From Alphaproteobacteria bacterium (lineage in GTDB: Bacteria; Pseudomonadota; Alphaproteobacteria; UBA828): a stretch of 64,000 bases of DNA. How positions within the stretch are numbered: the stretch's first letter is position 1; each line of letters starts with the position of its first letter. Made by a program: the position numbers and the translations under genes. Below the pieces are notes generated by a model that saw only the letters and a program-made list of their open reading frames with translations, was not told the DNA's origin and made no database searches. Of the stretch, positions 4,791-53,173 are shown piece by piece. The stretch is taken from positions 60,158 through 124,157 of the forward strand of contig CBDEFM010000001.1 of the NCBI GenBank assembly GCA_965237415.1, given 5' to 3'.

Positions 4791-4805
4791 CGTACGAAGA
4801 AGCCC

Positions 4806-16605: not shown

Positions 16606-16627
16606 GGCTTGCGCGGGGGCCGGCGGC

Positions 16628-36350: not shown

Positions 36351-36403
36351 CCGGGGGCGGTCATAGCCGGAGTGGATTGCGGGCCGCGATCGAGCTATAA
36401 GGA

Positions 36404-36418: not shown

Positions 36419-36447
36419 TTGGTCACTTGCATCCGGGAGGAAGCCCG

Positions 36448-37882: not shown

Positions 37883-38275
37883 CTAAAACTTCCGATACAC
37901 CCCGTTGAGGTCGGCCATGGGGTGGCGGGGCGACATCTGGAACTTCACCAGCAGCTCGCGGGCGAGCATGTCGCGGTCCTGCTGATTGTCGGGCAGCTCC
38001 AGGTTCTCCGGCACCGAGACCCAGCCGTTGATATTGCGGTCGAACACCGCCGGCCGGCCTTCCTCGTAGCCCATGTGGACGTCTTCCAGCCAGTTCAGGT
38101 CGGTCCAGCCCATGGTCTCGATATAGCGCTTGAGGAAGGGCGTGAGCCGCTGGTAATCCGGTACCAGGTTCACATCGTAGCGATAGCCGATGTGCTGGCC
38201 GATCTCCTTCTCGCGCTCGCTGTCGAGGCCGCTCTGGCTCAGGTAGTAGTCGACGTCGCCGGTCTTATCGCTCAT
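37883..38275 (-). CDS. hypothetical 130-aa soluble protein, last gene of the leftward operon
   Basis: ORF 37883..38449 trimmed to ATG 38275 (MSDKTGDVDYYLSQ...), 17 nt after the upstream stop, with GGAGA as SD. No TM segment or signal peptide. No family recognised. Confidence 0.6.
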   Translation of the reverse strand: MSDKTGDVDYYLSQSGLDSEREKEIGQHIGYRYDVNLVPDYQRLTPFLKRYIETMGWTDLNWLEDVHMGYEEGRPAVFDRNINGWVSVPENLELPDNQQDRDMLARELLVKFQMSPRHPMADLNGVYRKF

Positions 38276-38292
38276 GGCGCATCTCCGGGCTG

Positions 38293-39660
38293 CTAGTAGC
38301 GGTTCATGTCGGGGCGGCCGACGGTGTGCTGGGAGCCCGCGAGCGGCACCTGGGCCATGGCGGAGGCCTCCATGGTGAGCGCGGCGAGGTCCTCCGGCTC
38401 CAGGCTGTGGACATCGGTCTTGCCGCAGGCGCGCGCCATCATCTGGCACTCCAGCGTCAGCGTGTGGAGGAAGTTGTAGACACGCTCCGCCGCCTCGTCG
38501 GGGTCGAGCCTCTTGCGCAGCTCCGGGTCCTGAGTGGCGACGCCCACAGGGCAGCGCCCGGTGTGGCAGTGATAGCAGTAGCCGGCCTCGACCCCGATCT
38601 CGGACTCGTAGTCGGCCTCCGGAATGTCCTTGTTGCAGTTGAGCGCCATCATCACCGAATGCCCGATGGCGACCGCGTCGGCACCCAGCGCGAGCGCCTT
38701 GGCGATGTCGCCGCCGTTGCGGACCCCGCCGGCGTAGACGAGGCTGATGCTTCCGGTGGCGCCGAGGTCGTCCAGCGCCTTGCGCGCCTGGCGGATCGCC
38801 GCGATGCCGGGCACGCCGGTCTCTTCGGTCGCGAGATGCGGGCCGGCGCCGGTCGAGCCCTCCATCCCGTCGATGTAGATGCTGTCCGGGCCGGTCTTGA
38901 TCGCCATGCGCACGTCGTCATAGACGCGCGCCGCGCCGAGCTTGAGCTGGATCGGAATCTCGCTGTTGGTTGCTTCGCGGATCTCGTTGATCTTGAGCGA
39001 GAGGTCGTCCGGCCCCAGCCAGTCGGGATGGCGCGCCGGCGAGCGCTGGTCGATGCCGGCCGGCAGCGAGCGCATCTCGGCCACCTGGTCGGTCACCTTC
39101 TGCCCCATCAGATGGCCGCCGAGCCCGACCTTGCAGCCCTGGCCGATGAAGAACTCGCACGCATCGGCGAGCCTCAGATGGTGAGGGTTGAAGCCGTAGC
39201 GGGACTGGATGCACTGGTAGAGCCACTTCTCGGAGTAGCGGCGCTCGTCGGGGATCATGCCGCCTTCGCCGGAGCACGTGGCGGTGCCGGCCATGGTGGC
39301 GCCGCGCGCGAGCGCGGTCTTGGCCTCATACGAGAGCGCGCCGAAGCTCATGCCGGTGACATAGACCGGGATGTCGAGCACCAGCGGGCGCTTGGCATTG
39401 GGCCCGATCACCGTCGTCGTTGTGCACTTCTCGCGGTAGCCCTCGATGACGAAGCGCGTGAGCGTGCCCGGCAGGAAGGTCAGATCGTCGAAGGTCGGGA
39501 TGTTCTTGAAGAGCGAGAAGCCGCGCATCCGGTAGCGGCCGAGCTCCGCCTTGATGTGGATGTCGTCGATCACCTCGGGCGAAAAGATGCTGCTTCGCCC
39601 CAGAATATGCCGGTTGCGGCTGGGCCGGTTGGCGACGGCTTCGCGTCTGTCGCTGGCCAT
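38293..39660 (-). CDS. FMN-binding glutamate-synthase-family protein (GltB FMN domain; MgsC-like)
   Basis: 455 aa. GEGGMIPDE, GGHLMGQKV, GSTGAGP, CYHCHTGRCPVGVATQDPELR, typical of the stand-alone GltS FMN domain. Confidence 0.85.
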   Translation of the reverse strand: MASDRREAVANRPSRNRHILGRSSIFSPEVIDDIHIKAELGRYRMRGFSLFKNIPTFDDLTFLPGTLTRFVIEGYREKCTTTTVIGPNAKRPLVLDIPVYVTGMSFGALSYEAKTALARGATMAGTATCSGEGGMIPDERRYSEKWLYQCIQSRYGFNPHHLRLADACEFFIGQGCKVGLGGHLMGQKVTDQVAEMRSLPAGIDQRSPARHPDWLGPDDLSLKINEIREATNSEIPIQLKLGAARVYDDVRMAIKTGPDSIYIDGMEGSTGAGPHLATEETGVPGIAAIRQARKALDDLGATGSISLVYAGGVRNGGDIAKALALGADAVAIGHSVMMALNCNKDIPEADYESEIGVEAGYCYHCHTGRCPVGVATQDPELRKRLDPDEAAERVYNFLHTLTLECQMMARACGKTDVHSLEPEDLAALTMEASAMAQVPLAGSQHTVGRPDMNRY

Positions 39661-39698
39661 GGCGGACTCCTTGCAGGGTAGCGAGAGGCCGCGCTCGC

Positions 39699-40550
39699 TC
39701 AGAGCGCGATCTTCTTCTCGGCCGGCTCGAGGTTGTCGTAGTTCCAGAGCTGCTTGCCGGCGACGATCTTGGTCAGGTTGCCGACGCCGTTCGGCGCCTC
39801 CATCCCGTAGGCCGCGAGCTTTCGCTCGAGCCAGCCCGCCTCGACATCGGTGATCTCGCCGGGCACGGCATCGACGCCGAGGGAGGCGATGGTGCCGCCG
39901 ACGAAGATCGTGCCGTCATAGAGCGAATCGCCGAGGTTGGGGCCGGCGTTGCCGAGGATGACGATGCGTCCGCGCTGCATCATGAAGCCGGTGAATGCGC
40001 CAGCACGGCCGCCGATGAGGATGGTGCCGCCCTTCATGTCGATGCCGGTGCGGGAGCCCACATCGCCCTTGCAGACGAGGTCGCCGCCGCGCAGTGCTGC
40101 GCCGAAGGTGGAGCCCGCGTTCTTCTCGATGACCACGACGCCCGCCATCATGTTCTCGGCGCAGGACCAGCCGACGCGGCCCTCGATGTGGACGTTGGGG
40201 CCGTCGATCAGCCCGCAGCCGAAGTAGCCGAGGCTGCCCTCGAAATCGAGCTTCAGCCGATTGAGGATGCCGACGCCGAGGGAATGCTTGGCCAGCGGGT
40301 TCTGGACCACGATGTGGCCGTAGCCCTCGCCCATCAGCTCTCGGATACGGAGGTTGACGGCGGGCCCCTCCATCTCCGCCGCGTCGATCGTCGCCTTCTT
40401 GGTGAAATCGACGTCGAAGCCTTCGGGATAGGTGTAGTTGTCGCCCTCTTCGGGGGAGAAGAAGACCTGCTGGGTGCGGCCGGCGAGCTGCTCCGCGTGC
40501 AGCCCCATGTCATGGGATTTGTGCCGGTCGGCGGGGCTCAGTTCTGCCAT
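39699..40550 (-). CDS. GXGXG-motif protein (GltB C-terminal domain / FwdC-like; MgsB-like)
   Basis: 283 aa. Repeated beta-helix glycine motifs: GSLGYFGCGLIDGPNVHIEGRVGWS, GGDLVCKGDVGSRTG, GGTILIGGRAG, GRIVILGNAG. About 70-aa N-terminal extension. Confidence 0.8.
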   Translation of the reverse strand: MAELSPADRHKSHDMGLHAEQLAGRTQQVFFSPEEGDNYTYPEGFDVDFTKKATIDAAEMEGPAVNLRIRELMGEGYGHIVVQNPLAKHSLGVGILNRLKLDFEGSLGYFGCGLIDGPNVHIEGRVGWSCAENMMAGVVVIEKNAGSTFGAALRGGDLVCKGDVGSRTGIDMKGGTILIGGRAGAFTGFMMQRGRIVILGNAGPNLGDSLYDGTIFVGGTIASLGVDAVPGEITDVEAGWLERKLAAYGMEAPNGVGNLTKIVAGKQLWNYDNLEPAEKKIAL

Positions 40551-41494
40551 ACCTTGACCTCCCCCTCGTAGGGGTCCCAGGTGTCGATCTCGTCGGGCAT
40601 GATGCCGCGAATGGCCACCTCCTCGGAGGCGAGGCCCACAAAATCGTCGCTCTCGTAGAGCACCATGGGCTTGGCCGCCATCATGTCCTTGGCCATGCCC
40701 AGGCTATCCGCCGTCGCCACCAGATAGGTGAAGACGCCGTCGAGCTCGCTCACCGAGCGAACCATCGCCTCCTTGAGCATGTCGCCGTGTTCGATGCGGT
40801 CGGCGAGGTAGACGGCGATCAGCTCTGAATCGCAGTTCGACATGAAGCGATGGCCCCGGTGCTCCAGCGCCCGGCGGAACTTCCAGTAATTCGTAAGCTG
40901 GCCGTTGTGGACCAAGGCGATATCGTTGAAGGGATAGGCCCAGTAGGGATGGGCCGAGCGGATATCGACGTCGGATTCCGTCGCCATCCGGGTGTGGCCG
41001 ATGGCGTGGGTGCCCTGGAACCCGGCGAGGCTGTACTGCTCGCTCACGATGCTGGCGTCGCCGAGGTCCTTGATCAGCTCCAGCGCGTGGCCGAGGGAGA
41101 GGATCTCCGCCCCCTCGACATCCTCGATGTAGTCGGCGAAGCGCTTGAGCCGCTGCTGGCCGCCATCGTCGTCACCGGGGAAGCGCAGGCGGTAGCGGAA
41201 CGCATATTCGGTGGCCGCGTCCTCGTCGAGGATCTCCACCTCCATGCTGCGGATGCGCGCATCCACCTCCGCCTTGCGATCCTTGATCTGCTGGTGGATT
41301 TCGAAGCCTTTGCCGATGTCCTCCTGCTCCGCCACCTTGAAGCGCATCACATGGTTGTTCTCGACCGGAACGCCGTAGAAGGCGAAGCCGGTGGAATCCG
41401 GCCCCCGATGCTTCAGGGCCTGGAGCATCGTGGTCATCTCCGCCCCGATGTCGCCGCTCGATCCGCGGTGGATCAGTCCTGCTATCCCGCACAT
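40538..41494 (-). CDS. class-II (Ntn) glutamine amidotransferase-like protein (MgsA-like)
   Basis: Trimmed to ATG 41494 so that the protein starts MCGIAGL (catalytic Cys2). RHRGPDSTG and HTRMATES motifs. 318 aa. Confidence 0.82.
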   Translation of the reverse strand: MCGIAGLIHRGSSGDIGAEMTTMLQALKHRGPDSTGFAFYGVPVENNHVMRFKVAEQEDIGKGFEIHQQIKDRKAEVDARIRSMEVEILDEDAATEYAFRYRLRFPGDDDGGQQRLKRFADYIEDVEGAEILSLGHALELIKDLGDASIVSEQYSLAGFQGTHAIGHTRMATESDVDIRSAHPYWAYPFNDIALVHNGQLTNYWKFRRALEHRGHRFMSNCDSELIAVYLADRIEHGDMLKEAMVRSVSELDGVFTYLVATADSLGMAKDMMAAKPMVLYESDDFVGLASEEVAIRGIMPDEIDTWDPYEGEVKVWQN

Positions 41495-41517
41495 GGGCGC
41501 CTCGTCTTTCGATTTGG

Positions 41518-42987
41518 TTAGGGCAGGCAGTCGAGATAGGTCTCGACGTCCCACTCGGTGACGGTGGACATGAAGCGTTCCCACTCGTCGCGCTTGTAGT
41601 GCAAGAAGACGCGGAGCATCTCGTCCGGCAGCGCGGAGTTGATCACCTCGTCTCTCTCCAGCGCGTCGAGCGCCTCGCCAAGCGACATCGGCAGCTTCTT
41701 CACCTGCTTGCCGGCCTCCATGGCCTGGTAGATATTGCGCTCCTCTGGCTCGCCTGGGTCCAGATTGCGCGTGATCCCGTCGTCGAAGGCCTTGAGAATC
41801 GTGCCGGCCATCAGGTACGGATTAACCATCGAATCGACCGAGCGGTACTCGAAGCGCCCCGGCGCCGAGACGCGCAAGGCGCAGGTCCGGTTCTGGTAGC
41901 CCCAGTCGGCGAAGACCGGCGCCCAGAAGCCGGTATCCCACAGCCGGCGGTAGGAGTTCACGGTCGACGAGCCGAGGGCGGTGAGAGCCGCAAGATGCTC
42001 CATCACCCCGCCGATGCAGTTGAGGCCGACCGGCCCGGGCTTGTGGGAGTCGAGGGACGGGTCCGGCATGAACAGGTTCTCGCCGCCCTTCCAATAGCTG
42101 AAGGTGTCGTCCATGCCGGCGACCGGGTCCTGATGGAGCGTGTTGACCCGCTGCTCGCCACCCTTCCAGAGCGAGACGTTGTGATGGCAGCCGCTCGCCG
42201 AGACCCCCATGAAGGGCTTCGACATGAAGCAGGCGATGACGCCGTGCTCGCGGGCCACCTGGGCGCAGATCTGGCGATAGGTGGTGAGCCGGTCGGCGGT
42301 CCTGAGCGCGTCGTCGAAGGTGAAGTTGAGCTCGAGCTGTCCGGGCGCGTCCTCGTGGTCGCCCTGAATCATGTCGAAGCCCATGGCCTGGGAATACTCG
42401 ATCACCCGCATGAAGATCGGCCTGAGCTCCTCGAACTGGTCGATGTGGTAGCAGTTGGGCTTGGTGACGCCGCCGTCGGTCTTGCCGTCCGCGCCGCGCT
42501 TGAGCCACATCATCTCGGGCTCGGTGCCGTGGCGCATCTGCATCCCGTGCTTGGCCTGGAACTCCTCGTGAAGGATCCGCAGATTGCCGCGGCAATCGGA
42601 AGTCAGGTGCCCGCCCGGGTTCTCCCGCTCCTCCCGGTTGCGGAAGCAGGTGCAGAAGACGCGCGCGACGCGCTTGTCCCAGGGCAGCTGCACGAAGGTC
42701 TCGGGGTCGGGGATGCCGACCAGCTCGGATGCTTCCGGCCCGTAGCCGATGTAGTTGGAGTGGCGGTCGGTGAAGAGGTTGGCTGTCGAGCCGTAGACGA
42801 GCTGGAAGCCGCGCTCGGCGATCTGTTCCCAGTGATCGGCGGGGATGCCCTTGCCGACGATCCGCCCGGTGACGGAAACGAACTGATAGTAGATGTAGGT
42901 AACGCCGAGATCGTCGATCTTGGCGCGCACCTGCCGCACCAGCTCGTCGCGTCCCTCCCTGTTCACATGGGCTTCAAGATCGGTCAT
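41518..42987 (-). CDS. glutamine-synthetase-family ligase (gamma-glutamyl-alkylamide synthetase candidate, GmaS/GlnT-like)
   Basis: 489 aa. GS beta-grasp N-domain (YIYYQFVSVTGRIVGKGIP) and catalytic-domain motifs GTEPEMMWL, DHEDAPGQLELNF, SKPFMGVSASGCHHNVSLW, NSYRRL. Confidence 0.82.
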   Translation of the reverse strand: MTDLEAHVNREGRDELVRQVRAKIDDLGVTYIYYQFVSVTGRIVGKGIPADHWEQIAERGFQLVYGSTANLFTDRHSNYIGYGPEASELVGIPDPETFVQLPWDKRVARVFCTCFRNREERENPGGHLTSDCRGNLRILHEEFQAKHGMQMRHGTEPEMMWLKRGADGKTDGGVTKPNCYHIDQFEELRPIFMRVIEYSQAMGFDMIQGDHEDAPGQLELNFTFDDALRTADRLTTYRQICAQVAREHGVIACFMSKPFMGVSASGCHHNVSLWKGGEQRVNTLHQDPVAGMDDTFSYWKGGENLFMPDPSLDSHKPGPVGLNCIGGVMEHLAALTALGSSTVNSYRRLWDTGFWAPVFADWGYQNRTCALRVSAPGRFEYRSVDSMVNPYLMAGTILKAFDDGITRNLDPGEPEERNIYQAMEAGKQVKKLPMSLGEALDALERDEVINSALPDEMLRVFLHYKRDEWERFMSTVTEWDVETYLDCLP

Positions 42988-43020
42988 CTCCGCATCCTCC
43001 CCGGCGATCGGCGGGTCTCG

Positions 43021-44364
43021 TCAGCTCCACGGGAAGGGGCTGTTGGAGACCGGGTGAAGGCGACCCTCCGCAAAGCGTGAGAAGCGGAAGGGCTCGAGCA
43101 GGGCGCTCTCGCGGCCCATCAGCTCGTCCGCAACCAGCTTGCCGACGGCGAGCATCTTGTAGCCGTGGTTCGAATCGGCGATCACGTAGCAGTTCTCGCG
43201 GAAGCGGTCGAACACGGGGAAGCTGTCGGCGGTGAACGCACCGATTCCGCCGGAGGGCTCATCGAGCCAGCGCCCGATCTGACCCTTATAGCGGCTCTGG
43301 CAGAGGGCGAGCGCCGAGCACCACATCTCCCTGAACTCGTCGTCGACGACGAATTCCGGCGATTCCGGCCCGTAGGGGTCGATCGCCACGTCGGGCACCG
43401 GGGTCTCCACCTTGTAGGGGGCGGCACCGCCCTGGATGCCGCCGAAGTTGAAGTCCGGCTTGTAGTAGATGCCCCACATCTTGTCGGTGATCAGCCTGCC
43501 GTCCACGTCGGAGTAAAGCGGCTCGTCGGAATCGACGTGGATGACCGGCGGCATCGACCCGTCGTCGGCCATGCCGAAGGAGGGCTCGACGGCGAGCGTG
43601 CCTTCCTGAAGGCACCAGAAACGCCACATATCGACATCGGGGTGGAGCGTGCCTTCCAGGTCCTTGACGTCGATCCGATCCGGCAGATCGAGCATGTCCC
43701 AGATGCGCGGCACCCAGGGGCCGGCCGCGACGACGACCTGATCGACGCCGATGCTTCCCTGGTCGGTCTCTACCGAGGTCACCGCCTTGGAGTTGGCGCC
43801 GAAGCCGAAGCCCTTGACCTCGACCCCGGTGAGGATGCGGACGCCGGCGCCCCTCGCCTTGTCCGCAAGGCCTAGCATCGAGGCCCGGTTGTTGGCGTAT
43901 CCGCCCTTCTTCTCGTGCAGGATGGAGGTGATGCCCGGCGCCTGCCAGTCGCCGAACAGGCGCCGCATGTACGCCGTACAGTCGGCCTCGCCCTCGATGA
44001 ATTCGGACTCGTAGCCGATCGCCCGCTGCTGCTGCGCGATCTCGGCGACATCGGCATGCATGCTCTCGGGGCTGATCTGCATGTAGCCCACGGAATGGTA
44101 GTGATAGGCCTTGGGATCGCTCTCCCAAGCCTCCACGCAGGCCGCCATCAGCTCGCGCATCGCCGGCTGGAAGTAGTTGTTGCGGACGACGCCGCAGGCG
44201 ATGCCGGAGGCGCCGGCCGCGATGTCGCTCTTGTCCACAATCGCGATGTCGGCACCGCTGCCGTTGCCCTGCGCCTTCAGCCCAAGCGCGAGGTGGTAGG
44301 CGGTGCTGAGGCCGTGGATTCCGGCCCCGATGATCAGATATTTGACGTGCCCCGGAAGCGTCAT
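43021..44364 (-). CDS. FAD-dependent oxidoreductase (DAO family, sarcosine-oxidase-beta-like)
   Basis: ORF trimmed to ATG 44364. KYLIIGAGIHGLSTAYHLA (GxGxxG). 447 aa, single subunit. No SoxA/D/G-like partners nearby. Confidence 0.82.
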   Translation of the reverse strand: MTLPGHVKYLIIGAGIHGLSTAYHLALGLKAQGNGSGADIAIVDKSDIAAGASGIACGVVRNNYFQPAMRELMAACVEAWESDPKAYHYHSVGYMQISPESMHADVAEIAQQQRAIGYESEFIEGEADCTAYMRRLFGDWQAPGITSILHEKKGGYANNRASMLGLADKARGAGVRILTGVEVKGFGFGANSKAVTSVETDQGSIGVDQVVVAAGPWVPRIWDMLDLPDRIDVKDLEGTLHPDVDMWRFWCLQEGTLAVEPSFGMADDGSMPPVIHVDSDEPLYSDVDGRLITDKMWGIYYKPDFNFGGIQGGAAPYKVETPVPDVAIDPYGPESPEFVVDDEFREMWCSALALCQSRYKGQIGRWLDEPSGGIGAFTADSFPVFDRFRENCYVIADSNHGYKMLAVGKLVADELMGRESALLEPFRFSRFAEGRLHPVSNSPFPWS

Positions 44365-44432
44365 CTGTGCGCTCTCTACCGCCGTAGATCGGCCGATTGT
44401 CGGGGGCGCACTCAAGCGGGCACCCTCACATT

Positions 44433-44472
44433 TGTCAAGCCAATTATGGTCCGACCGGATCGACCAATTATG
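44433..44472. promoter_or_regulatory. divergent control region: FadR/GntR-type operator core plus direct repeats and a -35 box
   Basis: TGGTCCGACC at 44447-44456 matches the core of the E. coli FadR operator as I recall it. CCAATTATG occurs at 44440 and 44464. A perfect TTGACA on the minus strand (complement of 44433-44438) faces the leftward operon. Confidence 0.45.
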
Positions 44473-44612
44473 AACCAATATGAATGAATGGTTGAACGTT
44501 GCGTCGAAATTGATTAAAGCAATAAGGTCCACCGACCGGCTTCGTGACGTATGCCGTCGTTGCGAGGGCGATTGGGCCAGGGGTTGTCAGGCGGAGCGGA
44601 GTGGAGCGAAGC

Positions 44613-45353
44613 ATGCGACAGGCTGGCGCGATGGAGGCAGGAAGCATACGGCCCGGCGGCGAAAATATCGGTACGCCGCGGACAGCCGATTCGGCAGCAG
44701 ACGCGATCACGGCCCAGCTCGCGCAACGAATCCTCGACGGCTCTTTCGCGATGGGCGACCGCCTGCCGCCGGAGCGGAGCCTCGCCGAATCCTTCTCGGC
44801 TTCACGCGGCACGGTGCGCGAGGCCCTGCGTTCGCTGTCGGCACGCGGGCTGGTGGCGCGCCGGGTGGGTAGCGGCACCTTCGTCATCTACGAGCCGGAC
44901 GTCGGTGAGACCGATGTCTCCGAAATCACCTCGCCGCTCGAGCTGGTCGAGGTCCGGGCCGCTATCGAACCGCAGATGGCCAGGCTTGCCGTGCTCAACG
45001 CCACGGCGCGCGACATGGCTGCACTGGAGCGCGCGGTCGCCGAGATGGAAGGCGTGGCGGACGCCGAGAGATTCTCGCTCGCCGACGAGATGTTCCACTT
45101 GCGGCTGGCGGAGGCCACCCACAATCCCCTGATCGTCGAAATCTATCACCGCATCAACCACGTCCGCGCCCACCAGCAGTGGGACTCGATCAAGGACAAG
45201 ATCCTCACGCCCGCGCAGATCTCCGCCTACAACGCCGAGCATCGCGCCCTTCTCGCGGCGCTCTCCCGCCGCGATGCCGACCGTGCGGTGGAAGTCGTCT
45301 CCGCCCACATGGAGCGCGCCCGCGCCGATCTGCTGGCCAGCACCGGCGGCTGA
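44613..45353 (+). CDS. GntR-family regulator, FadR subfamily (FCD C-terminal domain)
   Basis: ATG 44613 with GGAG upstream (44631 is an alternative). HTH RLPPERSLAESFSASRGTVREALRSLSARGLV. C-terminal helical FCD-like domain. Confidence 0.88.
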   Translation: MRQAGAMEAGSIRPGGENIGTPRTADSAADAITAQLAQRILDGSFAMGDRLPPERSLAESFSASRGTVREALRSLSARGLVARRVGSGTFVIYEPDVGETDVSEITSPLELVEVRAAIEPQMARLAVLNATARDMAALERAVAEMEGVADAERFSLADEMFHLRLAEATHNPLIVEIYHRINHVRAHQQWDSIKDKILTPAQISAYNAEHRALLAALSRRDADRAVEVVSAHMERARADLLASTGG

Positions 45354-45557
45354 ACCGCCCCGCCAACAACGGGCGCGGATACTGCGGGGCATCCCCGGGC
45401 AATTTCGGGATGAGCCTTCGCGGCGATTGTGTTTAGATTGGCAGGATGATCGCCTCCGTAACGATTCGGAGAGCGCTTGGCGCGTCATGACCGTTAGTTG
45501 CCGCCTGCACGGGGCTGGACGCGGGCCCCACCGCGCGGCGCCACAGGGGAGACGACC

Positions 45558-46751
45558 ATGAACGAGGACAAACTTCTCAAGCAGATGCTAAAGCGCGACC
45601 CGGTGCGCGGCGCGGCCGCCACCAGGCGTCAGGTGCTCCAGGGGATCGGCGCCGGCGCGCTCGCGCTGGGCGCGGGCAGCGCCCTCACGGGACGGGCGCA
45701 GGCTGCCGACAACCTCGCGATGCTGACCTGGGACGGCTACGTGGATCCGCGCGTGCTCGACGGCTTCACCGACCAGTACGGAACCGGCATCGACTACGAG
45801 CTGCACACCTCGGACCCGGATTCGGTCAACAAGCTCCGTGCCGGCGAGACCAAGATCTGGGACATCATCAACCTGAATAACCCGTGGGCGCGTGAGATTA
45901 TGTGGCCGGAAGGGCTCATCATCGAGCTCGACCGCGCCCGCTTCGATCCCTACTTCGAGGCGATGCTGCCGATGTTCCAGCCGCCCTACAAATGGGCGAT
46001 GAGCCTCGACAACGAGCATCTGCTGGGGGTCTGCCAGCGGGTCGACACCTTCGACTTCGTGGTCAACACCGATATCGTCTCGGCCGATATGGCGAAGGAC
46101 GAGGGCTGGGATCTCTTCAACAATCCCGACATGGCCGGCCGCTACGGCATCCTCGCCTACGACAACTGGAACATCATGCACATCTGCATGGCCGCCGGCC
46201 TGCATCCGTTCAAGGAGAAGACCGACGACCAGGTCGCCACCTTCGAGGAGGCGGCGCGGCGTCTCATCAACGGCGCGAAGATGATCTCGGACGATTTCGT
46301 CGCCGTGAACCTCGCCGTGGTCAACGGCGAGATCGACATGTACTTCGGCGGCGGCACCTATTCGATCTCGTCAGCCCGGCTCGACGGGCTCACCAACCTC
46401 TACCACGTGGTGCCGAAGAGCGGCCCGGCCGACGGCAAGGGCGGGATCAACTGGATCGAGCTCAACTCGGTGGTTAACAATCCCGACCTTCATCCCCAGG
46501 CCATGGACTGGATGGAATACATCCTCCAGCCCGACACCTCCTACGCGGTCGCGACCGCCGGCGGCTTCCTGCTCCCGGTGGGGCAGATGGCACAGCCGGA
46601 GCTGCTCGACAAGTTCTCGGCGGAGGAGCTCGACTCCTTCCAGTGGGACGAGTTCGACTACCGCATCTCGCACTCCGTCGAGTACGACGTGGTGCCGGAC
46701 TACAACCGGCTCTACGACATCTACACGGCGGCGCGGCGCGAGAAGTCGTAA
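45558..46751 (+). CDS. ABC importer periplasmic binding protein (PotD/PotF-like), Tat signal
   Basis: ATG 45558 after GGGGAG. Twin-arginine leader ATRRQVLQGIGAGALALGAGSALTGRAQA. Family-1 SBP body. Confidence 0.82.
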   Translation: MNEDKLLKQMLKRDPVRGAAATRRQVLQGIGAGALALGAGSALTGRAQAADNLAMLTWDGYVDPRVLDGFTDQYGTGIDYELHTSDPDSVNKLRAGETKIWDIINLNNPWAREIMWPEGLIIELDRARFDPYFEAMLPMFQPPYKWAMSLDNEHLLGVCQRVDTFDFVVNTDIVSADMAKDEGWDLFNNPDMAGRYGILAYDNWNIMHICMAAGLHPFKEKTDDQVATFEEAARRLINGAKMISDDFVAVNLAVVNGEIDMYFGGGTYSISSARLDGLTNLYHVVPKSGPADGKGGINWIELNSVVNNPDLHPQAMDWMEYILQPDTSYAVATAGGFLLPVGQMAQPELLDKFSAEELDSFQWDEFDYRISHSVEYDVVPDYNRLYDIYTAARREKS

Positions 46752-46766
46752 GCCCTGCCGGCTGCG

Positions 46767-46838
46767 GCGGGGGCGCGCGGCGGCTGACGCAGCGCGCCCC
46801 CGCTACGACCGCACGCCCGGCCGGCCCCGGCCGGGCGT
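46767..46838 (+). other. two strong GC-rich intercistronic stem-loops after the binding-protein gene
   Basis: GCGGGGGCGCGC (46767-46778) pairs with GCGCGCCCCCGC (46792-46803). ACGCCCGGCCGG (46813-46824) pairs with CCGGCCGGGCGT (46827-46838). Confidence 0.6.
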
Positions 46839-46874
46839 CAGCGCCCTTGAAAAGAGAGGATCGAAACGAGCGCC

Positions 46875-47942
46875 ATGGTGGATGCCGCGCCCATCCTGCG
46901 CATGGTCAACCTGACCAAGCAATTCGGCCGACTGGTCGCGGTGAACGACGTTTCCCTCGACATCCAAGAGGGCGAGTTCTTCACCATCGTCGGCCCGTCG
47001 GGGAGCGGCAAGACCACGCTGCTCCGCATGCTGGGGGGCCTGGAGAAGCCGACGGCGGGCGACATTTACTTGCGCGAGCAGCGGGTCAACGCGGTGCCCG
47101 CCAACCGGCGCCCGACCTGCATGGTCTTCCAGTCCCTCGCCCTCTTCAATCACAAGACGGTCGGCCAGAACATCGAGTTCTCGCTGAAGATGCGGGGCGA
47201 GAACCGCCGTGCCCGCCGCGAGCGCGGCCTCTCGCTCATGAATGTGGTCCAGCTGCCGGAGGACTTTTACGACAAGTCCGTCACCAAGTGCTCGGGCGGT
47301 GAGCGCCAGCGCGTGGCGCTCGCCCGCGCGCTTGCCTCCGACCCCGAAATCCTGTTCTTCGACGAGCCGCTTTCCGCCATCGACTATCGCCTCCGCAAAC
47401 TGCTGGAGGTCGAGCTCAAAGACCTCCACCGCACCACGGGCAAGACCTTCGTCTACATCACCCACTCGCTCGAAGAGGCGATGGTGATGAGCGACCGCAT
47501 CGGGATCATGCAGGAGGGGCGCCTGATCCAGATCGGCTCGCCCAACGAGATCTACCTGCAACCGCGCAACAAGTTCGTCTCGGAGTTCATGGGCGAGGTG
47601 AACACGTTTGCCGTGCGCGTGGGCGCGGATGGCGGCATCGACTGCCCCCACTTCGAGCGCCGCTTCACCAGCCCGGCCCACCCGGATGGGTTTAGCGACG
47701 GCTATCTCGTGATCCGGCCCGAATCGATGCGTTTCCTGAACGACGCCTCGGAGGCCGAGAACCATCTCGAGGGATCGCTCTTCAACGAATACGCGCTCGG
47801 CTCCCGGGTGCAATATCACGTGAGCGCCCGCGGCATGATGTTCGTCGTCGAGAAACTCCGCGAGCAGGCCTATCGGGGCGGGCTCAACGAGGACGTTCTG
47901 ATCGGCTGGGACGCCAAGGACAGCGTGCTCGTGGCCGACTGA
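46875..47942 (+). CDS. ABC importer ATPase (PotA/MalK-like with C-terminal TOBE-type domain)
   Basis: Walker A GPSGSGKTT, signature CSGGERQR, Walker B ILFFDEP. 355 aa. Confidence 0.9.
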   Translation: MVDAAPILRMVNLTKQFGRLVAVNDVSLDIQEGEFFTIVGPSGSGKTTLLRMLGGLEKPTAGDIYLREQRVNAVPANRRPTCMVFQSLALFNHKTVGQNIEFSLKMRGENRRARRERGLSLMNVVQLPEDFYDKSVTKCSGGERQRVALARALASDPEILFFDEPLSAIDYRLRKLLEVELKDLHRTTGKTFVYITHSLEEAMVMSDRIGIMQEGRLIQIGSPNEIYLQPRNKFVSEFMGEVNTFAVRVGADGGIDCPHFERRFTSPAHPDGFSDGYLVIRPESMRFLNDASEAENHLEGSLFNEYALGSRVQYHVSARGMMFVVEKLREQAYRGGLNEDVLIGWDAKDSVLVAD

Positions 47943-48853
47943 TGGCTGACCGCGCGGAGACGCCTGCGGCAATCATCCGGCAGCCGGGGGCCGGGTCGCT
48001 TCTGCTGGGCTGGCTGTGCTCGGCGGGCGTGCTCAGCGCGACCCCGGTGCTCGTCTTCTTCCTGATCGGCTTCGTCGGCCCGCTGGTGATCGTGCTGGCC
48101 TTCAGCTTCACCCCGGAGCGCACCTTCGACCTCGGCGCTGGCTTCACAACCGAGAACTACGAGCGCATCTTCACGGAGAGCTACTACATCTCCTTCATCT
48201 GGTCGTTTGCGCTGGCCGGCGTCACCGTCGCCTGCAACCTGCTGATCGGCTACCCGATCGCCTACGGCCTCACCAAGCTCTTCGGCCGCTGGGCGGCGCC
48301 GGTCATGCTGGTGCTCGTCATTCCCCTCTTCGTCTCCGAGAACGTGCGGCTCTTCGGCTGGTATCTCTTCCTGATCAAGGGCGGCGGCATCCTGGCGGGT
48401 GGGCTCAAGACCTTCGGCATCGACACCGGCACGATGCTCTATATGCCCGGCACCATCCTGATGGGCATGATCTACGTCTATCTGCCCTTCACCCTCTTCC
48501 CCATCGTGCTCGGGCTCTCCATGGTGCCGGGCGATCAGGTCGAGGCCTCGCGCGACCTCGGCGCGAACCGCTTTCAGATCTTCCGCGAGGTGGAACTCCC
48601 GATCGCCATGCCCGGCATCCTCATCGGCGCGCTGCTGACCTTCGTGCTGGCGGTGGGCGCGATCTCCGAAGCCAAGCTCCTCGGCGGCCAGAACACGCCG
48701 GTCATCGCCCAGGACATCCAGCACGAGTTCACCTACGCCCAGAACTGGCCGCTGGGGTCCGCGATCTCGGTGCTGGCCATCGTCGTCACCGGCATCCTCG
48801 TGGTGGTGGTGATGCGCCGGCTCGACCTCGACCGGCTGCTCGGCCGACGATGA
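47942..48853 (+). CDS. ABC importer permease (PotB-like)
   Basis: 303 aa; 6 TM helices. EAA-type loop EASRDLGANRFQIFREVELP. TGATG overlap with the ATPase gene. Confidence 0.88.
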   Translation: MADRAETPAAIIRQPGAGSLLLGWLCSAGVLSATPVLVFFLIGFVGPLVIVLAFSFTPERTFDLGAGFTTENYERIFTESYYISFIWSFALAGVTVACNLLIGYPIAYGLTKLFGRWAAPVMLVLVIPLFVSENVRLFGWYLFLIKGGGILAGGLKTFGIDTGTMLYMPGTILMGMIYVYLPFTLFPIVLGLSMVPGDQVEASRDLGANRFQIFREVELPIAMPGILIGALLTFVLAVGAISEAKLLGGQNTPVIAQDIQHEFTYAQNWPLGSAISVLAIVVTGILVVVVMRRLDLDRLLGRR

Positions 48854-48874
48854 CACGCATGGGCGGGCGCTGAG

Positions 48875-49681
48875 ATGGAGAACAAGCGCTGGGTCATAAG
48901 CCTGATCGCGGTCTGGACCGGCGCGGTCGCGCTCTTCCTCTACATCCCGATCTTCTCGGTCATCGTCACCTCCTTCGGCAAGTCCCGCTACTTCCGCTTT
49001 CCCGTGAAGGCCTGGAGCGACAAGTGGTACGACCAGACGCTCGGCGCCAACCTGACCACGGACCTCCACCTCACCTCGTTCTATGTCGCGGGCTGCGTCG
49101 CGCTCATTGCGGTCGTGCTGGGCTTCTTCGGCGCTTTGGCCTTCGCCCGCTACAACTGGCGCGGCCGCCAGTTCTATCAGCGCCTCATCATGCTGCCGAT
49201 CTTCTTCCCGCAGGCCGTGCTCGGCCTCGCGCTCCTGCTCTGGTTCACTTTCGTAGGCGTGCTGCCGAGCTGGGAGGCGGCGGTCTTCGCCCATCTGGTC
49301 TGGATCGTGCCGATCGTGACCCTCGTGATCTCGATCCAGGTCTACGGCTTCGACGTAGCCCAGGAGGAGGCGGCCTACGATCTCGGCGCCAACCGCTGGC
49401 AGGCCTTCCGCGAGATCACGCTGCCGGCGCTCGCACCCGGCCTCTTTTCCGGCGCGCTCTTCGCCTTCCTGCTCTCCTGGGGCAACTTCCCGCTCTCGAC
49501 CTTCACCACAGGCGCCGACAGCACGGTGACCGAATGGCTCTATACCAAGATGGGCGGCGGCTACACGCCGATGATCCCGACCATGGGCGCGCTCTCGGTG
49601 TTCGGCGCCATCGCCATCCTCTTCGGCGGCTACATGTTCCTGATCGTCCACCGGCGCCGCCGGCTGGAGCGCGGCGATTAG
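48875..49681 (+). CDS. ABC importer permease (PotC-like)
   Basis: 268 aa. EAA-type loop EEAAYDLGANRWQAFREITLP. Confidence 0.88.
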   Translation: MENKRWVISLIAVWTGAVALFLYIPIFSVIVTSFGKSRYFRFPVKAWSDKWYDQTLGANLTTDLHLTSFYVAGCVALIAVVLGFFGALAFARYNWRGRQFYQRLIMLPIFFPQAVLGLALLLWFTFVGVLPSWEAAVFAHLVWIVPIVTLVISIQVYGFDVAQEEAAYDLGANRWQAFREITLPALAPGLFSGALFAFLLSWGNFPLSTFTTGADSTVTEWLYTKMGGGYTPMIPTMGALSVFGAIAILFGGYMFLIVHRRRRLERGD

Positions 49682-49768
49682 CCGGAGCCATGACGAACCA
49701 ACGGGGGAGTTGTCTCGCCCCGCGCATCGCGCTCTAATCCCCCCGACTTAGCGCCACAGGAGCAACCG

Positions 49769-50071
49769 ATGGCCTACCAAGTCACGGAAAAGGACCTTTA
49801 CGTCGTCGACGAGTTCATGGCCAAGCCGATTGGCCACCACAGCCCCAACTTGCAGCGGGTGCTCAATACGTTGAGGGGAGCGGACGTAAAGGGCAAGCAC
49901 TGCCTCGTCTGCACCAAGCCCGGCCGCGAGTGGCGCCTGGCCCAGCTCTCCGGCGTGCGCGGCAAGCCGGTCAAGCTGCTCGACAAGACCTTCGACAATA
50001 TCGAGGACGCCGAGCGCTACGTCTTCCGCCTGCGCTGGAAGCAGCACACCGGCAAGGCGTTGCCGAAATAA
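49769..50071 (+). CDS. 100-aa protein, candidate small subunit of the DMFase-like amidohydrolase
   Basis: CAGGAG SD 6 nt upstream. Lies immediately upstream of the large subunit, as in dmfA1-dmfA2. HHSPNLQRV...REW...YVFRLR resembles motifs I recall (unverified) from DmfA1. Confidence 0.55.
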   Translation: MAYQVTEKDLYVVDEFMAKPIGHHSPNLQRVLNTLRGADVKGKHCLVCTKPGREWRLAQLSGVRGKPVKLLDKTFDNIEDAERYVFRLRWKQHTGKALPK

Positions 50072-50133
50072 CCGCCGCGCGAGCGGCCCTCTTTACCACC
50101 GACAATCTACCGCCAGGCCCTGGGGAGCTACAC

Positions 50134-52386
50134 ATGACCAGAATCGCGGGCTATGCCGACCGCGTCAGCGTGACGCCGGGAGAGACCATCAACTTCATGG
50201 TGAGTTGCGAAGCTCCCTCCTACAAATGCGACATCGTCCGCCTCGTCTGCGGCGACGAGAACCCCGACGGCCCCGGCGTCAAGGAGAAGGTGGTCAGGAC
50301 CGGCGCGAGCGGCACCTACAAGGGGCGCCGCCAGGTCTGCTACGACGGCTCCTTCATGGAAGTTCCGGCTCATCCCGCGATCCAGGGGCTGGAGAGCTTC
50401 ACCATTCAGGCGTTCATCTGGCCGACGACGCCCGATCGCGGCACCCAGGCGCTGATCTCCAACTGGCGCGATCGCGACAAGGCAGGTGCCGCGCTCATCA
50501 TCACCAAGAAGGACGGCTCGCTCGCGCTCTGCCTCGGTGACGGTAAGGGCGAGATCGAGGTGATCGCCACCAACCGACCGCTGATCGCGCACCAGTGGTA
50601 CTTCGTCGCCGCATCCTACGACGCCGAGTCGAAGCAGGTGACGCTGGTGCAGCAGCCGCTCAACGAATACCCCAATGTGGACCACGGCCGGACCTTGAGG
50701 AAAAAGTCTGCGCTGAGCGGGCCGGGCAAGCACGACGCACCACTCACCATGGGCGGCCACTTCAAGCGCGTGGATAAGGGGTGCACCGTCTGCGGCGGCT
50801 TCTACAACGGGCGCATCGACAGCCCCCGCATCGCGAACCGCGTGCTGAGCCCGGCGGAGATGGAGCTTGCCAAGACCCCTCCCACGCACGGATCGCTCGC
50901 GACAGCCGTGATCGGCGCCTGGGACTTCTCCCAAGGCATCACGACGACGACCGCGACCGATCTCACCGCCAACGCTTTGCACGGCAGCCTCGTCAACATG
51001 CCGACGCGCGCCGTCACCGGCTGGTGTTGGGACGGCAGCGAGATGAACTGGCAGAGCGCGCCGGAGCAGTACGGCGCGATCCATTTCCACGAGGACGACG
51101 TCTACGACGCGCGCTGGGAGGTCGATTTCTCGCTCACCTGCCCCAAGCGGCTGAAGAGCGGCGTCTACGCCGCGAGGCTCCGGGGCGAAGGCGGCGGCGA
51201 GGAATACATCCCCTTCGCCGTCCGCGCCCCGCGCGGCGCGGCGACCGCGAAGATCTGCTTCCTGCTCCCCACCGCGAGCTACATGGCCTACGCCAACACC
51301 AACATGTCCACCAACATGGGCGCGGCGCAGATTCTCGCCGGCCGGCTCACGGTGCTGAATGAGAAGAACCTGCAACGCAGCGAGCACCGGGAATACGGCA
51401 CCTCGCTCTACGACAGCCACATCGACGGCAGCGGCATCTGCTACTCCTCGCGGCTCAGGCCGATCCTGAACTTCCGCCCGAAGGCGCTGGAGTGGATCGG
51501 CGGCACCGAATCCACGCTCTGGCAGTTCAACGCCGACACGCATCTGACCGAGTGGCTGGAAGCGCGGGGCTTCGAGTACGACGTCGTCACCGACGAGGAC
51601 CTGCACTACGAAGGTCTGTCGGCGATCCAGGACTACACGGTCGTTCTCAGCGGCTCGCACCCCGAGTACCACTCGAAGGCGATGTGGGACGCGATGCAAG
51701 CCTATCAGCAGCGCGGCGGGCGGCTCATGTACATGGGCGCCAACGGTTGGTACTGGCGCATCGCCTACCACAACGAGGTGCCGGGATGCATCGAGGTACG
51801 CCGCGCCGAGGACGGCATCCGTACCTGGATCGCCCGCCCCGGCGAGTACTATCACAGCTTCACCGGCGAATACGGCGGCCTCTGGCGGCGCAACGGGCGG
51901 CCGCCGCAGGTAATCGTCGGCACCGGCTTCAGCGCTCAGGGCTTCGACATCTCGTCCTACTACGTGCGCCAGCCGGACAGCTTCAAGCCGGAGGTCGCCT
52001 GGATCTTCGAAGGCATCGGCGAGGACGAGAAGATCGGCGATTTCGGGCTGATCGGCGGCGGCGCAGCAGGGCTGGAGCTCGACCGGGCCGACCCGCTGCT
52101 CGGCACGCCGCCCAACACCTACGTGCTCGCGAGCTCTGAAGGCCACACCGACCTCTACCTCGTGGTCTGCGAGGAGCTCGACGTGAACCGGCCCAATGCC
52201 GACGGCACGCAGGACCCGCTGGTGCGCGCCGACATCGTGTTTTACGAGACCGCGAACGGCGGCGCGGTGTTCTCCACCAGCTCGATCGCCTGGTGCGGAA
52301 GCCTTGCCCACAACGACCACGACAACAACGTCTCGCGCATGACCGAGAACGTCCTGCGCCGCTTCGCCGATCCGACCTCGTTCTGA
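50134..52386 (+). CDS. N,N-dimethylformamidase large-subunit-like amidohydrolase (LamG-like N-domain + DMFase beta C-domain)
   Basis: In-frame ATG 50134 (GGGGAG SD) of ORF 49930..52386; 750 aa. LamG/ConA-like segment FTIQAFIWP...WYFVAASYD...FYNGRIDSPRIANRVLS. C-domain LLPTASYMAYAN, SLYDSHIDG, VLSGSHPEYHS, LMYMGANGWYWR, consistent with the DMFase beta family. Confidence 0.75.
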   Translation: MTRIAGYADRVSVTPGETINFMVSCEAPSYKCDIVRLVCGDENPDGPGVKEKVVRTGASGTYKGRRQVCYDGSFMEVPAHPAIQGLESFTIQAFIWPTTPDRGTQALISNWRDRDKAGAALIITKKDGSLALCLGDGKGEIEVIATNRPLIAHQWYFVAASYDAESKQVTLVQQPLNEYPNVDHGRTLRKKSALSGPGKHDAPLTMGGHFKRVDKGCTVCGGFYNGRIDSPRIANRVLSPAEMELAKTPPTHGSLATAVIGAWDFSQGITTTTATDLTANALHGSLVNMPTRAVTGWCWDGSEMNWQSAPEQYGAIHFHEDDVYDARWEVDFSLTCPKRLKSGVYAARLRGEGGGEEYIPFAVRAPRGAATAKICFLLPTASYMAYANTNMSTNMGAAQILAGRLTVLNEKNLQRSEHREYGTSLYDSHIDGSGICYSSRLRPILNFRPKALEWIGGTESTLWQFNADTHLTEWLEARGFEYDVVTDEDLHYEGLSAIQDYTVVLSGSHPEYHSKAMWDAMQAYQQRGGRLMYMGANGWYWRIAYHNEVPGCIEVRRAEDGIRTWIARPGEYYHSFTGEYGGLWRRNGRPPQVIVGTGFSAQGFDISSYYVRQPDSFKPEVAWIFEGIGEDEKIGDFGLIGGGAAGLELDRADPLLGTPPNTYVLASSEGHTDLYLVVCEELDVNRPNADGTQDPLVRADIVFYETANGGAVFSTSSIAWCGSLAHNDHDNNVSRMTENVLRRFADPTSF

Positions 52387-52420: not shown

Positions 52421-53173
52421 ATGAGCGGCCCCGTACTTGAGGTCGAGGCCCTCACCAAGCGTTTCGGTCCGGTGACCGCCGTCGATGCGTTGAGCTTCAC
52501 GGTCGCCCGGGGGACGACCGCCGCCCTGCTCGGCGCCAACGGCGCGGGCAAGACCACCACCATGGCGATGATCCTGGGCCTGCTGCTGCCGAGCGCCGGC
52601 ACGGTGCGCATCTTCGGCCGCGACCTGGCTGCCCACCGCTATGCGCTGCTGCCCCGCATGAACTTCTCCTCGCCCTATACAGACCTGCCGCATCGGCTCA
52701 CGGTGCGCGAGAACCTGACCGTCTACGCCAAGCTCTACGGCCTCGACGGCGTCAGGCGGCGGATCGAGCGGATGGTCGAGACCCTCGACCTCGGCGCGTT
52801 TCTGAAACGGCCGACGGGCAAGCTCTCGGCCGGGCAGCGCACGCGGGTCGCGCTCGCCAAGGCGCTGCTCAACGATCCGGAGCTGCTGCTGCTGGACGAG
52901 CCCTCGGCCTCGCTCGATCCCGACACGGCCGATTGGGTGCGGGGCGTCATCGAGCGCTACCGCACCGAGACCGGCGCCACCATCCTGCTCGCCTCCCACA
53001 ACATGGCCGAGGTCGAGCGGCTCTGCGACGACGTGTTCGTGATGAGCGGCGGGCGCATCGTTGAGAGCGGCACACCAGAGGCCATGATCGAGCGCCGCGG
53101 CCTGAGCACGCTGGAGGAGGTCTTCCTCGAAATCGTGCGGGGCACGGCCGGCCTCGGCGAGGCAGCGCAGTGA
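52421..53173 (+). CDS. ABC-2-type exporter ATPase
   Basis: Walker A GANGAGKTT, signature LSAGQRTR, Walker B LLLLDEP. Starts 34 nt after the DMFase-like stop. Confidence 0.88.
   Translation: MSGPVLEVEALTKRFGPVTAVDALSFTVARGTTAALLGANGAGKTTTMAMILGLLLPSAGTVRIFGRDLAAHRYALLPRMNFSSPYTDLPHRLTVRENLTVYAKLYGLDGVRRRIERMVETLDLGAFLKRPTGKLSAGQRTRVALAKALLNDPELLLLDEPSASLDPDTADWVRGVIERYRTETGATILLASHNMAEVERLCDDVFVMSGGRIVESGTPEAMIERRGLSTLEEVFLEIVRGTAGLGEAAQ

Follow-up and report, generated by a model that had tools for sequence, protein, structure and literature searches.

We analysed a 64,000-nucleotide stretch of DNA (hereafter the window) from an uncultured, Rhodospirillales-type Alphaproteobacteria bacterium (assembly GCA_965237415.1, contig CBDEFM010000001.1, positions 60,158 to 124,157). 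It holds a locus in which a regulator, an importer and an amidase of the N,N-dimethylformamidase (DMFase) family run divergently from a six-gene module. This module comprises an FAD flavoprotein (DAO447), a glutamine synthetase (GS)-like ligase (GS490), MgsA-, MgsB- and MgsC-like proteins (MgsA', MgsB' and MgsC') and a 130-aa protein (Table 1). In the reading we favour, to which we give an even chance, the importer brings in an N-methylated amide, the amidase hydrolyses it, and the resulting methylated amine, dimethylamine (DMA) and/or monomethylamine (MMA), is assimilated via glutamate conjugates. A first-pass annotation of the same DNA had sketched a route from amide to amine to γ-glutamyl and N-alkylglutamate intermediates; that scheme is reasonable, broadly right and partly supported, and its specifics need correcting. 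All 13 genes that it described were recovered at the same coordinates, with domain E-values from 1e-13 to 1e-188.

The steps envisaged are as follows. A PotD-like ATP-binding cassette (ABC) importer would take in the N-methylated amide, and the amidase would split it into an acid and dimethylamine or methylamine. GS490 would use ATP to join the amine to the γ-carboxyl of glutamate, and the MgsA-like amidotransferase would free the amine to the FMN subunit, which would transfer it to the α-nitrogen of a glutamate skeleton. DAO447 would perform an oxidative demethylation yielding formaldehyde, its substrate being either N-methylated glutamate or, at the outset of the route, free DMA, and the GntR protein would govern both directions through ATTGGT/TGGT-N3-ACCA sites. 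Gene content, protein families, catalytic residues, the module's conservation and neighbours, and the operator motif are observed; we infer every substrate, the order of the steps, the co-regulation and which amide is involved. For comparison we sampled 80 loci around amidase homologues and 86 around DAO447 homologues (labels L followed by a number), and typed neighbouring genes by Pfam, NCBIfam and Paracoccus aminophilus reference proteins.

The large amidase subunit matches Paracoccus DMFase (PDB 6lvb_A) over residues 5–746 (E=1e-188), with 45% identity over 730 aligned residues. In the Paracoccus enzyme, Y399, Y440 and E521 are the iron ligands (2-Tyr-1-Glu) with H519 nearby, E657 is the probable base, N547 is the oxyanion residue, and F693 from the neighbouring subunit forms a constriction that shuts out larger amides (PMC7686228). 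Y399, Y440, E521, H519, N547 and E657 are all identical in the window protein when aligned to DMFase, and these six iron and catalytic residues are invariant across 13 relatives. The F693 gate position is Val in the window protein, and this column is variable among the relatives. The earlier placement of the large protein in the DMFase family is supported by its intact iron site, by its catalytic Glu and Asn, both retained, and by the presence of a small-subunit gene. The 100-aa open reading frame (ORF) before it, previously left anonymous, is instead a DMFase small-subunit homologue: it matches the PDB small subunit (Table 1) and is 76% identical to a 100-aa PF26354 (DMF_alpha) protein that adjoins a 71%-identical large subunit. 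A Pfam search of the ORF itself returned no match, and the DMF_alpha link comes through PDB and through the precomputed hits of the relative. In about 65 of the 80 amidase loci, the gene immediately before that of the large subunit encodes a small-subunit homologue.

The window pair thus shares with DMFase DmfA1A2 (PDB 6LVB) the two-gene layout of small and large subunits and the LamG-like N-terminal domain followed by DMFA2_C. It differs in its small subunit, which has 100 aa against 132 aa in DMFase and is barely alignable, in the binding-protein importer that precedes it, and in its membership of a large environmental clade, with hundreds of uncharacterised homologues at 58–71% identity in Gammaproteobacteria, Binatia and other groups. 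The large subunit also matches N-acetyl-(R)-β-phenylalanine acylase (PDB 8huy_A, E=2e-162), a member of the same family with full-length homology but a weaker match than DMFase, whose PDB entry list is without a small subunit. The acylase indicates that this fold can hydrolyse amides besides formamides. Iron-dependent amide hydrolysis is a well supported prediction for the window enzyme; its predicted specificity is not. As a separate observation on the family, the amidase large subunit at L083 (16576–20488) lies between two DMF_alpha-type genes (141 and 120 aa), and its equivalent of the oxyanion Asn547 is Asp (GADG, not GANG).

The leftward genes resemble the canonical N-methylglutamate (NMG) pathway of P. 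aminophilus plasmid pAMI6 and Methylocella silvestris (PMC4543880), which also combines a GS-like ligase with three Mgs subunits in the order A-B-C. Canonical islands likewise hold an adjoining FCD regulator and Amt, APC/trimethylamine N-oxide (TMAO) permease, Tdm and Sox/Mgd accessory genes. The window departs from them in that its ligase gene comes first, not last, and encodes 489 aa with an insertion of about 40 aa, that a DAO flavoprotein and the 130-aa protein are added, and that mgdABCD is missing. The window proteins are 32% (MgsA), 42% (MgsB), 54% (MgsC) and 32% (GmaS) identical to those of pAMI6, so that the most diverged subunits appear to be those expected to contact the amine, namely the ligase and the amidotransferase. 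The first-pass label gmaS-mgsABC stands as regards the order mgsA-B-C, but the genes form a separate paralogous module with its own flavoprotein and 130-aa partner. We also considered the homarine (hom) pathway, which likewise ends in N-methylglutamate, and rejected it on its different gene set.

Naming the ligase GmaS proved too specific: its best NCBIfam family, gln_synth_III (TIGR03105), scores 325 bits against a cut-off of 469.6, and in a PDB comparison GS490 is no closer to GmaS than to true GS. Where true GS has its flap Glu (GYEAP), GS490 has Trp (GFWAP), at the position that Trp also occupies in the two solved GmaS structures (W300). On the strength of this GmaS-like substitution, GS490 is predicted not to be a glutamine synthetase. 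The broader description as a GS-like ligase other than GS fits this pattern, the flap Glu carried by all true GS being absent. Its nearest cultured relatives (53%) are encoded on plasmids of Paracoccus sp. TOH and Ruegeria, in clusters with a P450, a second GS, a class-I amidotransferase and a ferredoxin. We take such P450 and GATase1 clusters to resemble the γ-glutamylation pathways for isopropylamine or piperidine, a cyclic secondary amine. A GS490-like sequence (41% over residues 24–429) was also seen on a plasmid of Gordonia sp. KTR9 (NC_018580.1, 159730–160860), where the feature is annotated 'FAD-dependent oxidoreductase', which suggests a fusion of a GS-like protein with a flavoprotein.

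The MgsA-like protein begins MCGI, with the catalytic Cys right after the initiator Met, and the MgsB-like gene overlaps its upstream gene by 13 nt. DAO447 is a divergent SoxB/MSOX-like protein: PF01266 covers its N-terminal half only, and the PDB SoxB match is distant (E=7e-9). Identity within its family is 64–98%, and a structure prediction from an 11-sequence alignment reached a pLDDT of 47. DAO447 had no match on pAMI6 or in a wider plasmid collection. A 447-aa oxidoreductase of pAMI6, tried as a DAO447 homologue, is Tmm2, and the equal length is coincidental. At three further loci (L116 at 4679–19384, L146 and L107), DAO447 homologues of 67–68% identity occur without GS or Mgs genes and are preceded by a class-I/II aminotransferase gene; GMC oxidoreductases, an SBF-family transporter, a JmjC protein and a ceramidase-like protein surround them. 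The 130-aa ORF is an orphan, as the first-pass annotation had it, with no Pfam, NCBIfam or PDB match, and its AlphaFold single-sequence model was unusable (pLDDT 39). It is 72–95% identical among module loci, where it directly follows the MgsC-like gene, and because it is missing wherever DAO447 stands alone, we consider that it travels with the GS/Mgs part.

The full module was found in the same order at 59 of the 86 DAO447-centred loci, with its proteins 60–98% identical across these 59; carriers include the cultured Zavarzinia sp. CC-PAN008 (CP173678.1) and a Pelagibacteraceae metagenome-assembled genome (MAG). A divergent GntR/FCD homologue is present at nearly all of them. Among the neighbours, the gene for the TMAO demethylase Tdm (NF053776, 1103.6 bits with a cut-off of 1100) is transcribed divergently from that of DAO447 in L144, L149 and L152, and a TMAO permease (NF053774, 884 against 690 bits) immediately follows the module in L096, L128 and L132. 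Amt-family channels occur at 12 loci, inside the operon in L097 and behind the GntR gene in L095, L112 and L141. MgdA-like SoxB genes are found at 13 loci and SoxA at 10, often directly beside DAO447, and further neighbours encode dimethylglycine dehydrogenase (DMGDH)-like proteins and PurU. Canonical GmaS (53–60% identical to that of P. aminophilus) adjoins the module in L103, L133, L155 and L172, and because of this the two ligases are probably not redundant. Given the genes around it elsewhere, the module is likely to belong to methylated-amine metabolism; judged by sequence, it appears to be a paralogue of the NMG pathway that takes part in methylated-amine catabolism. A literature search found no functional assignment for the six-gene module.

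Homologues of DmmA, DmmB and DmmC were found neither in the window nor at the 86 DAO447 loci (tblastn with P. aminophilus queries), and the canonical pAMI6 island carries dmmDABC beside tdm. The first-pass annotation had correctly recorded the absence of a dimethylamine monooxygenase and of MgdABCD (SoxBDAG-like) from the window, and had concluded that the substrate was more likely a mono-N-alkyl amide or something not yet described. We do not retain that conclusion, as the module adjoins DMA producers, Tdm and trimethylamine dehydrogenase (TMADH), at loci where no Dmm is seen. Because it lies beside DMA-producing enzymes without a Dmm gene, the module may be a DMA-handling step. DMA as at least one of its substrates is favoured because canonical GmaS coexists with the module, Tdm, TMADH and DMFase-family amidases adjoin it, and Dmm is absent. 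In P. aminophilus, use of dimethylformamide (DMF) needs a DMA-removing step (PMC4543880). DmmDABC (PMC5520151) is a possible functional analogue, its canonical place by tdm being taken here by the module or DAO447 alone; the module has no sequence relationship to it, and its proposed DMA role is our inference.

We tentatively suggest, as a possibility that is less likely than not, that the module is a glutamate-mediated dimethylamine pathway that replaces DMA monooxygenase in bacteria without dmmDABC, including the abundant marine SAR11. GS490 would convert DMA and glutamate to γ-glutamyl-dimethylamide, the Mgs-like complex would turn this into N,N-dimethylglutamate, and DAO447 would yield N-methylglutamate and formaldehyde, with Mgd then producing glutamate. 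Alternatively, DAO447 might convert DMA to MMA directly.

A DAO447 relative (P0334, 'FAD-binding oxidoreductase [Pelagibacteraceae bacterium]') was seen on 187 contigs, and another member of the DAO447 cluster is named 'monomeric sarcosine oxidase [Pelagibacteraceae bacterium]'. On a contig of a Pelagibacteraceae MAG (L172, 38% G+C), the order is electron-transfer flavoprotein (ETF) genes, a TMADH homologue, Tdm, an IclR gene, the module, canonical GmaS and Amt. The module there has the same six genes in the same order as the window, with proteins 61–77% identical (77% for the MgsC-like subunit), and the TMADH homologue (4071–6263, minus strand) matches PDB 1djn at E=9e-294. The two settings differ in the regulator, IclR-type there and GntR in the window, and in their neighbours, which there are Tdm, TMADH/ETF, canonical GmaS and Amt and in the window the amidase. 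The ETF genes adjoining the TMADH homologue (1–3902, minus strand) encode ETF-α and an ETF/Fe-S fusion.

Published tables for 'Candidatus Pelagibacter ubique' HTCC1062 list SAR11_1303 as a gcvT-like aminomethyltransferase by an OpuA-like transporter, SAR11_1304 as 'monomeric sarcosine oxidase', SAR11_1305 as glnT, SAR11_1308 as gltB2, SAR11_1310 as amt and SAR11_1313–1316 as glxBCD-glnT (PMC3870248, PMC3160333). By this annotation pattern, rather than by alignment, the module matches SAR11_1304–1309. SAR11 and many marine bacteria have tmm, tdm and gmaS and are without dmmDABC, an absence that has been read as a bottleneck through which dimethylamine escapes to the atmosphere (Lidbury et al. 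2017, PMC5520151), and the DMA route of the SAR11 genome, which is without DMA monooxygenase, was left unknown (PMC3870248). When nitrogen was limiting, only one protein was induced more strongly than SAR11_1304, whose function was described as uncertain (Smith et al. 2013, PMC3870248). This response, together with the nearby Amt genes and a domain content like that of GS combined with a split archaeal-type glutamate synthase, could be explained if the leftward operon were an alternative GS–glutamate synthase system for ammonium assimilation with DAO447 as an electron-transfer flavoprotein. We consider this extremely improbable and set it aside because GS490 has lost the flap Glu, a residue essential to every glutamine synthetase. 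In addition, SAR11_1305 and SAR11_1308 fall under nitrogen limitation, the regulator is of the GntR/FCD or IclR type and not Ntr, and there would be no explanation for neighbours such as Tdm, TMAO permease and Mgd.

Amt-family channels carry ammonium and methylammonium. Because of the Amt linkage, MMA is also favoured as a substrate, and the module could be a second complete NMG isoform for monomethylamine. In that case GS490 would form γ-glutamylmethylamide and the Mgs-like complex N-methylglutamate, DAO447, perhaps with the 130-aa protein, would replace MgdABCD as a single-subunit N-methylglutamate oxidase, and the amide would be mono-N-methyl, for example N-methylformamide, in line with the first-pass annotation. 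Besides the Amt channels inside or beside the module at 12 loci, the GmaS-type flap Trp of GS490 is in keeping with this, as is the absence of Mgd from the window, in which a self-contained pathway needs an oxidase; Paracoccus DMFase hydrolyses N-methylformamide too, at a high rate (PMC7686228). We nevertheless find this explanation doubtful. Canonical GmaS adjoins the module in several genomes and HTCC1062, by annotation, keeps two full GS and Mgs sets despite streamlining, both of which argue for different substrates. MgdA-like or SoxBDAG genes lie directly beside DAO447 at many loci, where DAO447 would be redundant, and the module adjoins DMA producers, not MMA producers.

The first-pass annotation had treated 12 genes as one regulon; adjacency does recur, but the argument is one of position only, and most loci of either kind are unlinked. 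At L083 an amidase of 48% identity with two DMF_alpha genes directly follows the 130-aa gene. On a marine TARA contig (L145), a DMFA2_C gene, ABC genes and hydantoinase A/B are followed by GntR, the module and mgdA-like genes; the hydantoinase A/B genes (N-methylhydantoinase/oxoprolinase family) lie at 4462–8233, between the ABC/amidase genes and the GntR block. At L007 an orthologous importer and amidase cassette (67–80%) lies 3 kb from a third-type GS and MgsABC set. After this cassette come, at 13230–19573, a GntR gene, an S15 peptidase gene and the non-canonical MgsABC with a GS of 448 aa. At L019 the amidase pair is near GS-like, SoxB-like and GcvT-like genes. The slot behind GntR elsewhere holds Amt, TMAO-permease-like, Tdm or DMGDH-like genes. 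The importer and amidase would thus fill a recurrent 'substrate supply' slot as a lineage-specific addition to a conserved core, and the juxtaposition of amidase and module, although lineage-specific, recurs independently.

Several observations weigh against the favoured reading. About 75 of the 80 amidase loci are without GS or Mgs genes within 10 kb, their neighbourhoods being otherwise very variable, and clustering of these 80 amidase-pair neighbourhoods gave no conserved neighbour beyond generic ABC ATPases. About 56 of the 59 module loci are likewise unlinked, the exceptions with a DMFase-family gene nearby being L083, L145 and, from the window's lineage, L088, and amidases 86% (L004) and 71% (L081) identical to that of the window lie in unrelated contexts. 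By identity, the window amidase clade is nearer to the uncharacterised homologues (58–71%) than to true DMFase (45%); because of this distance, the acylase in the family and the Val in place of the gate Phe693, any assignment of its acyl and amine specificities would be tentative. In the L007 operon, an SDR and two class-III aminotransferase genes (844–5154) precede the cassette, which points to a transaminable primary amine or an amino acid among the products. A small neutral amide would not be the expected cargo of an importer whose binding protein is PotD-like in fold, and the 204-bp gap between the GntR and binding-protein genes could hold an independent promoter. Finally, DAO447 homologues (65–70%) lie beside aminotransferase, GMC-oxidoreductase and SBF genes with no obvious methylamine link, and on account of these relatives DAO447 may be a more general N-demethylase.

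The extreme form of these objections is that the cassette and the module are unrelated neighbours by chance and that the amidase acts on another substrate, such as an N-acyl amino acid or an N-acetylpolyamine, whose products would bypass the module. The unlinked loci of both kinds and the amidases at L004 and L081, which stand alone, are what this explanation expects, and the acylase in the family, the PotD-like binding protein and the gap after the GntR gene fit it as well. We regard it as decidedly unlikely, since at least four independent juxtapositions of DMFase-family and GS/Mgs genes (the window's lineage, L083, L145 and L007) compare with about 0.3 expected among 59 loci, a rough estimate that assumes one such gene per genome and random placement, and since the slot behind GntR repeatedly holds methylamine substrate-supply genes.

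As first described, the importer is a PotD/A/B/C-like set of a binding protein with a Tat signal, a TOBE ATPase and two permeases. The polyamine-type label is weak: the NCBIfam PotD score is 38.7 bits against a cut-off of 582, and matches of the binding protein to PotD and PotF in PDB range from E=1e-7 to 1e-3. It therefore resembles the PotABCD and PotFGHI importers in operon architecture only, its binding protein being no PotD/PotF equivalog. Orthologues at L007, upstream of the amidase, are 79% identical for the binding protein and 68–80% for the ATPase and permeases. The Puu pathway (PuuA/PuuB with PotFGHI/PotABCD) also places a GS-like ligase by a DAO-family oxidase with a PotD-like binding protein, but the PuuA model reaches 243 bits against a cut-off of 650 and the Mgs-like genes have no Puu counterpart. 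Neither a PuuC aldehyde dehydrogenase nor a PuuD class-I amidotransferase was found in the locus. We dropped a Puu-type polyamine reading, with its models far under cut-off and PuuC and PuuD absent.

A related possibility is that the module converts a non-methyl primary amine (ethylamine, ethanolamine, propylamine or a diamine) to an aldehyde, with the amidase supplying the amine from an N-acyl form. This would extend Puu- or Ipu-like logic with an Mgs-type transfer, via γ-glutamyl and N-alkylglutamate intermediates. It would accommodate the P450, GATase1 and ferredoxin clusters of the nearest cultured relatives of GS490, the coupling of the L007 cassette to class-III aminotransferases and an SDR, and the PotD-like binding protein. 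We think it very improbable: the module's neighbours are specific to the metabolism of TMAO, trimethylamine, DMA and MMA, no aldehyde dehydrogenase or γ-glutamyl hydrolase was found in or beside the module, and the PuuA score lies far below its threshold.

Returning to the favoured import and assimilation of a methylated amine, its proposed co-regulation centres on the shared divergent control region, which was described correctly at first pass: 44365–44612, 248 bp separating the two start codons, with 56% G+C against 67.6% for the window. It contains TGGTCCGACCG at 44447–44457, a single mismatch to TGGT-N3-ACCA, and ACCAAT at both 44463 and 44474; the whole window has just four ATTGGT/ACCAAT hexamers, these two included. 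A minus-strand TTGACA hexamer (44433–44438) faces the DAO447 gene. Across the upstream regions of 48 modules, we counted 89 ATTGGT/ACCAAT half-sites where 4.2 would be expected, a 20-fold enrichment (no more than 9 in any of 200 shuffles), and perfect TGGT-N3-ACCA palindromes at 7 loci against 0.19 expected. These sites are in the style of FadR-subfamily operators, and we regard them as putative operators. The window regulator shares 37% identity with the FCD protein encoded next to gmaS on pAMI6 of P. aminophilus, and TmoR, a GntR-family repressor in an R. pomeroyi island, senses DMA (PMC13390433). That the GntR protein might govern both operons from this shared stretch is plausible on these motifs. 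The intergenic gaps of the rightward operon hold no further operator-type site, and promoter and terminator scans gave nothing beyond shuffled expectation. A perfect TGGTACGACCA palindrome, the sole perfect one in the window, lies inside the second permease gene at 49025–49035.

Table 1. Genes of the divergent locus, with window coordinates, strand and principal matches
Feature	Coordinates	Strand	Family or match
130-aa protein, last module gene	37883-38275	-	no family
MgsC-like FMN subunit (glutamate-synthase FMN domain)	38293-39660	-	PF01645, E=3e-88
MgsB-like GXGXG subunit	39699-40550	-	PF01493
MgsA-like class-II (Ntn) amidotransferase	40538-41494	-	GATase_6/7
GS490, GS-like ligase, 489 aa	41518-42987	-	Gln-synt_C, E=3e-84
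DAO447, FAD flavoprotein, 447 aa, first module gene	43021-44364	-	PF01266
GntR/FadR-type regulator	44613-45353	+	PF00392 and PF07729 (FCD)
Periplasmic binding protein (SBP_bac_8)	45558-46751	+	PF13416; twin-arginine motif TRRQVLQG
ABC ATPase	46875-47942	+	ABC_tran and TOBE_2
Permease 1	47942-48853	+	BPD_transp_1
Permease 2	48875-49681	+	BPD_transp_1
DMFase-family small (alpha) subunit, 100 aa	49769-50071	+	PDB 6lvb_B, E=0.005
DMFase-family large (beta) subunit, 750 aa	50134-52386	+	PF20254 (DMFA2_C), E=5e-104; Laminin_G_3

The leftward genes are separated by gaps of −13 to 38 nt, which fit a single operon. Four independent assemblies (L001–L003 and L088), from related Alphaproteobacteria or Rhodospirillales that are uncultured, share the entire arrangement and its flanks in synteny, their proteins being about 85–97% identical. 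Beyond the rightward genes, an ABC-2-type exporter on the plus strand (ATPase 52421–53173, membrane protein 53170–54000) begins 34 nt past the amidase stop; it is syntenic in the same four assemblies and may be co-transcribed with the amidase. On the other side, 2.7 kb past the module, an amidase-signature gene (PF01425, E=7e-97; 33625–35190, minus strand) encodes an unrelated second amidase that is found in the same place, 90% conserved, in L088. Between it and the module are a PIN_10-domain ORF (37049–37525, plus strand) and unassigned ORFs (35588–37302). The remaining window genes are housekeeping genes (ValRS, GlnD, RseP, BamA, LpxB and CobT).

To our knowledge, the DMFase family is the only one known to release DMA from an amide. 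Across the 86 loci, the module accompanies DMA-producing enzymes and never Dmm, and it lies beside DMFase-family amidases in at least three lineages. If the proposed glutamate-mediated dimethylamine pathway is correct, the window locus would be a complete route from a DMF-type amide through DMA to N-methylglutamate, and the marine 'DMA bottleneck' would be at least partly an annotation gap. The vague annotation 'sarcosine oxidase, glutamine synthetase, glutamate synthase' becomes a specific, testable hypothesis. If DMA proves not to be the substrate, the module would nonetheless constitute a second route for amines via glutamate, widespread and uncharacterised, and the amidase cassette would still offer a handle on the natural substrates of the environmental DMFase-like clade.

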